A DNA stretch of 64,000 nt from an uncultured Gammaproteobacteria bacterium (lineage in GTDB: Bacteria > Patescibacteriota > Microgenomatia > UBA10105 > UBA927), in NCBI GenBank assembly GCA_964349125.1, contig CAYGFH010000001.1:5408-69407 (forward strand), given 5' to 3'. Position numbers and translations under genes: made by a program. The first letter of the stretch is position 1; the number at the start of each line of letters is the position of its first letter. This document shows, piece after piece, positions 37,989 through 39,085 of the stretch. The notes under the pieces are model-generated. The model saw nothing but the letters and a program-made list of their open reading frames with translations. It did not search any database and was not told the origin of the DNA.

Positions 37989-38017
37989 TTGAGAGGTATA
38001 AAAATAACCTTTATAAT
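37989..38017 (+). promoter_or_regulatory. near-consensus sigma-70 promoter (TTGAGA-17 nt-TATAAT) driving the composite tRNA/GIY-YIG transcript
   Basis: Direct reading of ttgagaggtataaaaataaccttTATAAT. Confidence 0.45.
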
Positions 38018-38063
38018 AGCGATATAGTGGAAAAGCGTCCACGTATCGCTATTTGTGAGGTTC

Positions 38064-38116
38064 GCGGGATTAGTACACCGGTAGTAGCCCCGCCAACGGC
38101 GGGGAGAAGCGAGTTC
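38064..38116 (+). other. 5' portion (acceptor, D arm, anticodon arm, half of T arm) of a Gly-like tRNA paralogue, truncated in the T-loop by the GIY-YIG insertion
   Basis: gcgggattagtacaccggtagtag-ccccgccaacggcgggg-agaa-gcgag-ttcg, then the ORF ATG. The missing 3' part is found at 38436-38484. Confidence 0.55.
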
Positions 38117-38119
38117 GGT

Positions 38120-38374
38120 ATGTACTTTATGTATATATTGTCAAATGACCTATCTGGTAAGCACTATATAGGTTCGACAAATAACTTGGAACGCAGATTA
38201 GACGAACATAATCGAGGACAAACAAAATCAACAAAAAAAACTGGAAAATGGAGTATTATCTATACCGAACAATTTATGTCCGGTATAGATGCAAAGAGAA
38301 GAGAACAGCAGGTAAAATCATATAAAGGCGGTAATGCATTTAAGAAATTAATTGCGGGTATAGTACACTGGTAG
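38120..38374 (+). CDS. small standalone GIY-YIG (URI-domain) nuclease, 84 aa
   Basis: MYFMYILSNDLSGKHYIGSTNNLERRLDEHNRGQ...KREQQVKSYKGG matches the GIY-YIG catalytic core (YILxxxxGxxYIG, R, E). The last 21 nt overlap the 5' end of tRNA-Gly. Confidence 0.75.
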   Translation: MYFMYILSNDLSGKHYIGSTNNLERRLDEHNRGQTKSTKKTGKWSIIYTEQFMSGIDAKRREQQVKSYKGGNAFKKLIAGIVHW

Positions 38375-38424
38375 TATGCGACCTTCCCAAGGTTGAGAAG
38401 AGGGTTCGATTCCCTTTACCCGCT
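38354..38424 (+). tRNA. tRNA-Gly (anticodon CCC)
   Basis: Manual cloverleaf: acceptor gcgggta/tacccgc, anticodon loop ttCCCaa, T-loop ttcgatt, discriminator U; 71 nt. Confidence 0.8.
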
Positions 38425-38435
38425 CACGTAGTATG

Positions 38436-38484
38436 TCCCGCCAACGGCGGGAAGAAGCGAGTTCGATTCTCGTATCCCGCTCCA
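38436..38484 (+). other. 3' portion (anticodon arm to CCA) of the Gly-like tRNA paralogue; completes the fragment at 38064-38116
   Basis: tcccgccaacggcggga-agaa-gcgag-ttcgatt-ctcgt-atcccgc-t-CCA. The acceptor 3' strand pairs with gcgggat at 38064. There is a 30-bp direct repeat with 38088-38117. Confidence 0.55.
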
Positions 38485-38488
38485 AAAA

Positions 38489-38515
38489 AGAGGCCCTTTG
38501 GGGTCTTTTTTTTTG
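38489..38515 (+). terminator. rho-independent terminator
   Basis: gaggccc-tttg-gggtctt stem-loop followed by a T9 run. Confidence 0.6.
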
Positions 38516-38652
38516 GAGTTGAGTTAGAAATTGAAGCGGAACGCTTCGATATCCAGCGAATAGTGGACACGAACGAAGCGAGGCTCACTATCGCGCCAGA
38601 TATATGAGGAAGCGCAGTTTTTTCAGAAACGTAATGAAATTACTCTGAAAAA

Positions 38653-38684
38653 GCGAGCAAGCTCATATTCTCGTATCCCGCTCA
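38653..38684 (+). other. relic third copy of the tRNA 3' end (gcgag...attctcgtatcccgctca) with a disrupted T-loop
   Basis: Shares aagcgag and attctcgtatcccgctc with 38457-38483, but ttcg is replaced by caagctcat. Confidence 0.4.
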
Positions 38685-38687
38685 AAC

Positions 38688-38718
38688 AGAAAAAAACGGC
38701 CGTAAGGTCGTTTTTTTG
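38688..38718 (+). terminator. rho-independent terminator
   Basis: acggcc-gtaa-ggtcgt stem-loop followed by a T7 run. Confidence 0.55.
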
Positions 38719-38806
38719 TTTGTATGGATATGCAGATGATGCACTCGTTGAGTTCGACAGTGACCTGCGAAGCTCGAAAGAGCGAAGTGGGATTTCTCTA
38801 TCCGCA

Positions 38807-39085
38807 TCACATCCGTTGTGACTTGGGCAGCACGCTTTCCAGTTGGGTCTGGTTTATTAATTCTTTCAGCAATGGGACCGTTTTGAGGTTAGCGATCATA
38901 TATGTGAGCACTGCCAATACTATAGATACGCCAATTGTCGTTCCGAGTCCAAATGAAATTCCCTGTAGGAAACTTTTCCCAATCAATTCACGGGGTGTGG
39001 GATATACACGGTCAACAGCGCGGATAAATTTATCCAGTTGCGACCACTTTTCTGGTTTTCGAGCTTTCATATTGTTAGTATACAA
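38807..39085 (-). CDS. hypothetical small membrane protein, 92 aa
   Basis: Single hydrophobic stretch FLQGISFGLGTTIGVSIVLAVLTYMI; AT-rich island. Confidence 0.4.
   Translation of the reverse strand: MYTNNMKARKPEKWSQLDKFIRAVDRVYPTPRELIGKSFLQGISFGLGTTIGVSIVLAVLTYMIANLKTVPLLKELINQTQLESVLPKSQRM

Follow-up and report, generated by a model that had tools for sequence, protein, structure and literature searches.

A split tRNA-Gly(CCC) gene of a Patescibacteria genome encloses a probable homing-type GIY-YIG nuclease cassette with its own tRNA

In bacteriophage T4, free-standing GIY-YIG endonuclease genes of the seg group lie among tRNA genes, and one of them, SegB, located between tRNA-Arg and tRNA-Ile, causes its tRNA region to be inherited preferentially. 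The Seg proteins have about 200 residues or more and contain DNA-binding domains. Flanking markers travel with the nuclease in such systems ("intronless homing"), and several T4 homing endonucleases are restrained by transcript processing and by RNA hairpins that lie at the ribosome-binding site or a short distance upstream of it (PMC2988022). Genes for tRNA in separate pieces are known in archaea and algae as split and permuted tRNA genes; their pieces abut and are joined as RNA via complementary leaders and a splicing endonuclease (PMC10714607; PMC3218864). The locus described here, positions 38064–38484 of a 64,000-nucleotide stretch (hereafter the window) of contig CAYGFH010000001.1, from a Patescibacteria genome within the Candidate Phyla Radiation (CPR), is made up of two tRNA-Gly fragments, between which lie an open reading frame (ORF) for a minimal GIY-YIG nuclease and a complete tRNA-Gly(CCC) gene. 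It is probable, in our judgment, that a resident tRNA-Gly(CCC) gene of one allelic type (type A) was broken, and then replaced, by a nested mobile free-standing homing-type GIY-YIG cassette carrying its own tRNA of another type (type B).

The 5′ fragment (38064–38117, on the forward strand like all tRNA, hairpin, nuclease, promoter and terminator features of the window given below) comprises tRNA positions 1–57 of a type A tRNA-Gly(CCC) and reads GCGGGAT TA GTAC ACCGGTA GTA-G CCCCG CCAACGG CGGGG AGAA GCGAG TTCG. It retains the acceptor 5′ strand, the D arm with a stem short by one nucleotide, a hairpin, the variable loop, the 5′ strand of the T stem and the TTCG of the T loop, and is followed by GT and the ATG of the nuclease ORF, a start codon that falls in the former T loop. 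The 3′ fragment (38429–38484, type A, tRNA positions ~20–76 plus CCA) reads TAGTATG TCCCG CCAACGG CGGGA AGAA GCGAG TTCGATT CTCGT ATCCCGC T CCA, retaining the D-stem 3′ strand, the hairpin, the variable loop, the full T arm, the acceptor 3′ strand, U73 and CCA. The fragments are 311 nucleotides apart on the DNA, overlap by ~37 nucleotides in tRNA content and have in common a direct repeat (D3) of 29–37 nucleotides with 97% identity; at the base of the hairpin arm the pair is C–G in the 5′ fragment and T–A in the 3′ fragment, a covariation correctly noted in a preliminary description made from the letters of the stretch. Between the fragments, and separated from the second by the four nucleotides CACG, lies the intact type B tRNA-Gly(CCC) (38354–38424/5; called by ARAGORN, with 60.1 bits in Rfam).

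No contiguous tRNA gene exists at the fragments. ARAGORN reports only the neighbouring intact gene, and Rfam RF00005 gives no match on either fragment, neither at the gathering score nor at E ≤ 10. With a covariance model built from 32 CPR tRNA-Gly(CCC) genes (R1), the intact neighbour scores 93.6 bits, the 3′ fragment 32.4 bits, solely as an acceptor/T minihelix, and the 5′ fragment 11.6 bits. Joined artificially, the fragments fold as a cloverleaf with the loop CCAACGG, called tRNA-Val(AAC) by ARAGORN at its default settings, and only in this joined sequence are the acceptor, D, anticodon and T stems all paired. The earlier suggestions that the two pieces belong together and derive from tRNA-Gly are upheld; what had escaped attention was the nuclease ORF between the halves and the membership of the intact neighbouring tRNA in the same unit.

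The backbone of the split gene is that of a CPR tRNA-Gly(CCC). When one genome per species was scanned for its T arm and acceptor (GCGAGTTCGATTCTCGTATCCCGC), exact matches were obtained at at least 119 loci, almost all in Patescibacteria, and nearly all of these listed matches are the 3′ part of a normal tRNA-Gly(CCC), with a few GCC. Intact genes at three of the comparison loci, which are designated by L numbers (L012, L072 and L077), match the split gene except for the 17-nucleotide anticodon arm, CATCC TTCCCAA GGATG in the intact genes and (T/C)CCCGCC-AAC-GGCGGG(A/G) in the split gene, and for one D-stem base that is missing in the 5′ copy of the window. Because these genes are otherwise identical to it, the split gene is an ordinary type A tRNA-Gly(CCC) with a swapped anticodon arm. 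Type A has the acceptor GCGGGAT/ATCCCGC and the T stem GCGAG/CTCGT, and type B has GCGGGTA/TACCCGC and GAGGG/CCCTT, the latter occurring as the sole gene at L131, L140 and L154. The compensatory differences at acceptor pairs 6–7 and in the T stem, previously taken as a sign of selected structure, are present, but since both types occur as intact genes they are differences between two ordinary alleles and not evidence of selection on the split copy. The proposal of a diverged functional tRNA-Gly paralogue likewise fails, the backbone being normal apart from one D-stem base and only the anticodon arm being replaced. The odd tRNA of the window is two overlapping halves of an ordinary tRNA-Gly gene, not a gene for an unusual tRNA.

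The sequence replacing the anticodon arm is a palindromic hairpin occupying exactly its 17 nucleotides, CCCCGCC-AAC-GGCGGGG at 38088–38104, 15 nucleotides upstream of the nuclease start, and TCCCGCC-AAC-GGCGGGA at 38436–38452. The general form is YCCCGCC-N2-3-GGCGGGR, for which 29 distinct occurrences were collected, 16–18 in 5′ fragments, 7 in 3′ fragments and 4 in other fragments; none of the 29 lies in an uninterrupted gene, two that had been flagged as possibly intact being 5′ fragments followed by an ORF. Fourteen loop sequences were found (AAC, GAC, GAA, AAA, ATA, CAT, CTA, AA, AT, TT, GT, AC, TA and CT), and because the loop varies freely, CCAACGG is the tip of a hairpin and not an anticodon loop. 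That it is no decoding loop, position 33 being C, had been recognized before, and the homologues, with two or three variable bases between invariant stems, agree with this. In the stem, six of the seven pairs are invariant and the outer pair is C–G (12), U–A (6) or U–G (4), never unpaired. Since the stem was itself the selection criterion for the loci found by pattern, only the eight loci found through the protein alone can speak for its invariance; in all of these the stem is identical and the synonymous sites of the adjacent ORFs are saturated. The hairpin is under constraint. In 13 of 17 loci its distance to the start codon downstream is 11–16 nucleotides. An origin of the hairpin as a copy of the acceptor stem in swapped order (CCCGC...GCGGG) was considered and rejected, the hairpin being unchanged where the local acceptor differs (L149, GCGGTGG; L128, GCGGCAG); the resemblance itself is real, and the covariance model pairs the 3′ arm of the hairpin with the acceptor 3′ strand.

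The ORF at 38120–38374 encodes an 84-residue GIY-YIG protein consisting of the catalytic domain only (Pfam PF01541, E = 1.7e-14, 54.3 bits against a cut-off of 22.6, covering residues 1–67). Residues Y5, Y16-I-G18, R26, H30/N31, E62 and N72 are all present in the window protein and are 95–100% conserved in 120 homologues. Synonymous sites are mostly saturated among these, and the ratio of nonsynonymous to synonymous substitution rates (dN/dS) is 0.08–0.25 in the pairs that are not. The nuclease ORF is intact and under purifying selection. Its last seven codons and TAG stop lie within the intact tRNA-Gly(CCC), and in at least 77 of the 120 homologues the C-terminus is a translated tRNA-Gly 5′ end. 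The ORF has a G+C content of 32%, against 45.5% for the window. The best solved-structure matches are the UPF0213 stand-alone GIY-YIG proteins 1zg2 (BH0048, E = 2.8e-4) and 1ywl (EF2693, E = 1.2e-3). Matches to homing endonuclease families in NCBIfam and PHROGs were weak and N-terminal; the NCBIfam match, to TIGR01453 (group I intron endonucleases), reached 34 bits and stayed below the cut-off of 56. No relatives of the nuclease turned up when viral contigs were scanned.

The public protein collection contains a 115-residue entry (P0001) read from GTG 38027 (window 38027–38374), the first 31 residues of which are translated leader, tRNA fragment and hairpin, with the conserved protein beginning at ATG 38120; the exact 84-residue sequence is absent from the public protein record by exact look-up. 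No purine-rich motif that could serve as a ribosome-binding site lies 2–7 nucleotides upstream of this ATG in the window, and the possibility that the variable loop and T-stem strand act as such a site was discarded, as a purine-rich motif 2–7 nucleotides before the ATG occurs in only 8 of 17 loci. An older, decayed nuclease at 38724–38790 was also considered and dropped: 78 of 2000 shuffles scored equally well, and the hidden Markov model of the family gave no match.

The layout of 5′ fragment, hairpin, GIY-YIG ORF and intact tRNA-Gly, often followed by a hairpin-bearing 3′ fragment, recurs in about 25 CPR loci. The eight loci obtained by a protein search with subsequent retrieval of the flanking DNA (the window, L123, L124, L128, L149, L151, L152 and L153) all share one order, namely a 5′ fragment containing the acceptor strand and the D arm, the hairpin replacing the anticodon arm, the variable loop and T-stem strand, the ORF and an intact tRNA-Gly, which is CCC except in L149 and L151, where it is GCC. 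When metagenomes were searched for the hairpin flanked by its D-arm and variable-loop context, 20 matches were returned, 19 with the same layout; this took a looser hairpin pattern, as the exact hairpin of the window combined with its T arm had no match in metagenome or viral scans. Hairpin-bearing 3′ fragments follow the intact tRNA in the window, L012 (identical to L133), L124, L129, L131, L136, L140 and L145; their left ends differ from locus to locus, in the range from D loop to D stem. Several observations point to mobility. In many loci a single arm is present, which is the expected leftover of recombination between direct repeats. At L012 an intact type A gene is accompanied by a type B fragment, the reverse of the window, so the inner and outer tRNA types swap between loci. 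Tandem or nested units occur at L130 and L137, where the end of a nuclease ORF runs into a hairpin-bearing 5′ fragment and then the next ORF. At L151, an aminotransferase/tRNA-Gly(GCC) locus, an older, truncated arm that equals the arm of L149 precedes a CCC-type 5′ arm, and the latter has the same sequence as the inner tRNA-Gly(CCC) of L124. The same kind of split is found in tRNA-Gln, with GIY-YIG ORFs 39% (L004) and 30% (L029) identical to that of the window.

Several further arrangements were seen beside these. L137 contains, at 1541–1900, a second GIY-YIG ORF (35% identical) behind an intact tRNA-Gly and then a 3′ tRNA fragment in which the anticodon stem is kept and the loop is shortened to ATAAA, that is, the anticodon is removed. 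In L004 and L029 the order is a 5′ fragment of tRNA-Gln, with its break in the anticodon loop, then GC hairpins, the small GIY-YIG ORF and an intact tRNA-Gln; the hairpins of L029 are CGCCAAAGGCG and CTCGCCTCTGGCGAG, and this locus also has a 3′ tRNA-Gln fragment. In the Peribacteria loci L065, L068 and L097 the arrangement is different, a more distant GIY-YIG ORF lying downstream of an intact tRNA-Gly(CCC), followed in L068 and L097 by a short tRNA 3′-end repeat, ATCCCGCTC.

The states of the locus in close relatives show a presence/absence polymorphism at one site. L155, whose flank is 84% identical over tRNA-Asp, LysM and promoter, has the same promoter and then GCGGGATTAGTACACCGGTAGTATGCATCC, a type A sequence with a normal anticodon stem; it shares the same 25 nucleotides with the 5′ fragment of the window before continuing into the normal stem CATCC. 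L154, with a 94% identical flank, has the same promoter and only a type B tRNA, 100% identical to the intact type B gene of the window, without nuclease or fragments and abutting the DUF5665 gene. The tRNA allele is accordingly A in L155, nested A::B in the window and B in L154, which fits co-conversion; the simplest series, with its direction deduced from these three states, would lead from a naive type A gene through a type A gene broken by a cassette bringing type B to type B alone after loss of arms and ORF. In a 726-nucleotide contig from another sample (L122, positions 601–726), the 5′ fragment, ORF and intact tRNA match the window at 100% identity, and the sequence beyond them is absent from the window; this is a variant strain lacking the 3′ fragment, or else the assembly was joined at the repeat.

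The inner type B tRNA-Gly(CCC) is the working copy that keeps GGG decoding alive, and the broken type A halves persist as flanking arms. In the predicted course of events, the resident tRNA promoter presumably drives transcription of the whole unit, and the nuclease may be translated only from transcripts uncut by RNase P, since the nuclease stop codon lies inside the tRNA, and an mRNA without a stop would remain once the 5′ end of the tRNA had been processed. The nuclease would cut naive tRNA-Gly genes, repair would proceed from the cassette-bearing allele with the tRNA-derived arms as portable homology, and the cassette would thereby spread by intronless homing, its own tRNA allele finally replacing, in some cases, the resident one. 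For the element, the hairpin probably has at least one of three functions: removal of the anticodon-arm sequence from the arms may protect them from re-cleavage, the hairpin may break the homology between arms and inner tRNA that would otherwise delete the ORF, and as RNA it may form a stable hairpin shortly before the start codon.

Several points weigh against a homing cassette of this kind. Pfam finds no further domain beyond the GIY-YIG core (~78 conserved residues), including any DNA-binding module, and because the protein is without such a domain, recognition of a long homing site is hard to explain. Often, for example at L130 and L152, no difference separates the inner tRNA from naive tRNA-Gly genes, so that the tRNA sequence by itself cannot confer immunity; an immunity based on anticodon-stem differences between inner and resident tRNA was rejected for the same reason. 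The hairpin also occurs in 3′ fragments without a following ORF, and a purely translational role is therefore insufficient. The contig of L155 ends at tRNA position 30, and its gene is not proven intact. In many Microgenomates the cassette is found at the same LysM–tRNA-Gly locus with saturated synonymous sites, and long vertical persistence could explain part of the distribution. Finally, an arm overlap of 37 nucleotides is not expected to arise de novo from simple double-strand-break repair and must have been inherited from the donor or produced by another process.

That overlap is what an integration of the Campbell type would yield, in which a circular element carrying the segment from D-stem 3′ strand through hairpin and variable loop to T-stem 5′ strand recombined with the same chromosomal segment, the palindromic hairpin being the crossover core and the GIY-YIG protein or a host recombinase the catalyst. 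The 29–37-nucleotide direct repeats with palindrome that flank ORF and tRNA in the window, L124, L131 and L136 are in line with this, as is the hairpin itself, a perfect inverted repeat around two or three variable central bases. However, the ORFs adjoining the locus contain no integrase or recombinase domain, and rejoining of DNA is not known for GIY-YIG enzymes. The empty site that such an event predicts, an uninterrupted hairpin-bearing tRNA-like gene, is absent from all 29 hairpin occurrences, the left ends of the 3′ fragments differ between loci, and many loci have one arm only, all of which makes this integration unlikely. Equally doubtful is a domesticated operon, in which a small GIY-YIG nuclease beneficial to the host, with a tRNA-derived leader, would be inherited vertically in Microgenomates, immobile and with fragments left over from ancient duplications. 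The conserved synteny of PolX, tRNA-Asp, LysM, GIY-YIG and tRNA-Gly, the strong purifying selection with saturated synonymous sites, the position of the hairpin shortly before the start codon in most loci and the housekeeping-like character of the UPF0213 proteins, the nearest relatives with a solved structure, all speak for such an operon. It does not account for the presence/absence and allele replacement among relatives with 84–94% identical flanks, for the nested and tandem layers, for the same cassette at a different tRNA-Gly(GCC) locus with a foreign arm, for an ORF G+C content 13 points below the host, or for 3′-side arms that have no role in expression.

A functional tRNA-like RNA, encoded now or once by the two pieces as regulator, primer or suppressor and with its structure under selection, was the earlier interpretation and is now very improbable. 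The joined sequence does form a cloverleaf, each of the five fully nested loci has outer acceptor strands that match each other, one hairpin base pair covaries and is never unpaired, and the predicted fold of the 421-nucleotide unit closes with the outer acceptor stem; yet the acceptor match is explained by the common origin of both halves from one ordinary gene. The replaced arm occurs only in broken fragments beside GIY-YIG cassettes, no contiguous version existing among the 29 occurrences, the sequence and length of the loop are not conserved, and most members lack U33 and a seven-nucleotide loop. Instead of abutting, the fragments overlap; they are without complementary leaders that would permit trans-splicing, and Rfam matches are lacking. 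Of the options offered in the preliminary description, a pseudogene kept as an integration target comes closest to the finding. A variant in which the hairpin-bearing tRNA-like arms are not passive scars but working partners of the minimal nuclease, as decoy or inhibitor, as binding or cleavage site or as guide to tRNA-Gly genes, is also considered improbable. It has the attraction that a tRNA-shaped RNA or DNA with a palindrome might supply specificity or control, since the 84-residue protein is without a DNA-binding domain, and if it were true, arms and spare tRNA would make up a self-contained "tRNA replacement and addiction" module.

The remaining features of the locus are as follows. A promoter-like site, TTGAGA-17-TATAAT (37989–38017), with 11 of 12 consensus matches, is located 46 nucleotides upstream of the 5′ fragment, and the same sequence lies 5′ of the tRNA-Gly gene in L154 and L155. 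A terminator-like hairpin (38480–38518, inverted repeat I3) comes after the 3′ fragment, where the consensus terminator scan made no call; that scan did call a second terminator-like hairpin at 38690–38717. A third partial type A copy (38653–38682, repeat D5, 8.7 bits in the R1 model) consists of the T stem GCGAG/CTCGT with an altered loop and the acceptor 3′ strand, its identity beginning at A58 (38667). The neighbouring ORFs belong by Pfam to LysM and DUF5665, two others being without a Pfam domain. A decayed tRNA 3′-end remnant, GGATTTCTCTATCCGCATCAC (38790–38810), was recognized by aligning positions 916–1010 of L154 to window positions 38796–38890 and occupies the place where the tRNA 3′ end of L154 overlaps the convergent DUF5665 stop codon; this codon lies on the tRNA-Gly 3′ end in L154 (926–928) and on the decayed remnant in the window (38807–38810).

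ORF-less inserts of ~100–180 nucleotides after the tRNA-Gly 3′ end, followed by the repeat ATTCTCGTATCCCGCTC, are present in the window (38485–38686), in L041 (6547–6745) and in L091 (reverse strand), the repeat beginning at the same T-loop position, A58, in all three; they look like a second, separate kind of insertion at tRNA-Gly. In L050 (~880–1100 of the extract), L070 and L090, tRNA-Gly(CCC) is interrupted in the anticodon loop by an ORF-less insert of ~120 nucleotides that is a complete tRNA-Gly(CCC) within the inverted repeat GCCCC(C/T)CACC...GGTGTGGGGGC, doubly nested in L090; these are tRNAs inside tRNAs, a long stem bringing the outer halves together. On the GC-rich contig of L119 (~810–925 of the extract), a tRNA-like sequence runs uninterrupted; its T arm, acceptor and CCA are the same, its variable arm is long, and an 18-nucleotide perfect palindrome, CACTTTCATATGAAAGTG, takes the place of the anticodon loop. 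ARAGORN makes no call there.

The searchable literature yielded no account of GIY-YIG cassettes within tRNA genes of CPR bacteria, and the unit is best compared with several systems that each share part of its features. The islands and prophages integrated by tyrosine integrases also target tRNA genes and are flanked by partial tRNA direct repeats, as D3 and D5 are in the window, with breakpoints in the T loop and the anticodon region and with a working tRNA restored by the element. In the window, however, there is no integrase, the repeat is internal (positions ~22–57), the restored tRNA is a separate complete gene instead of a rebuilt 3′ end, and the anticodon arm is a palindrome. With the archaeal and algal split and permuted tRNA genes the locus shares a tRNA gene in separate pieces; unlike the archaeal type, its halves overlap by ~37 nucleotides, both with a hairpin and without an anticodon, and no complementary leaders are seen. 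The fractured genes (Dassa et al. 2009, PMC2677866) likewise are host genes broken into halves with a free-standing homing endonuclease gene in between, but there split inteins rescue the protein by joining its halves, whereas here the halves are dead and a spare gene copy rescues the function. Among GIY-YIG proteins, those of the UPF0213/YhbQ type, represented by BH0048 and EF2693, are of similar size and give the best sequence matches of any solved structure, though the similarity is weak. We know of no link of UPF0213/YhbQ proteins to tRNA gene fragments or mobility.

The closest likeness is to the T4 seg genes, which are also free-standing GIY-YIG genes among tRNA genes. As in T4, markers would travel with the nuclease, the marker of the window being the tRNA allele, and the placement of the hairpin resembles that of the hairpins restraining translation of T4 homing endonucleases (PMC2988022). 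The differences are that the window protein has 84 residues and the catalytic core only, that the unit resides in CPR chromosomes and not in phages, that it lies inside a split tRNA gene together with a complete spare tRNA in which the ORF ends, and that its arms carry a conserved palindrome in the place of the anticodon arm. We file the unit with the free-standing GIY-YIG homing cassettes and not as a new kind of tRNA. So read, it would provide a concrete route for tRNA allele swaps between CPR lineages and explain annotation artefacts such as tRNA fragments beside an intact tRNA-Gly and the 115-residue protein call, and apparent non-canonical tRNAs of CPR bacteria should be checked for a cassette before they are interpreted. 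Altogether, the phage seg endonucleases would gain a counterpart on bacterial chromosomes, one whose traits go beyond those described for seg: an enzyme reduced to its catalytic core, a tRNA gene that is at once target, source of homology arms and cargo, and an invariant palindrome in exchange for the anticodon arm.

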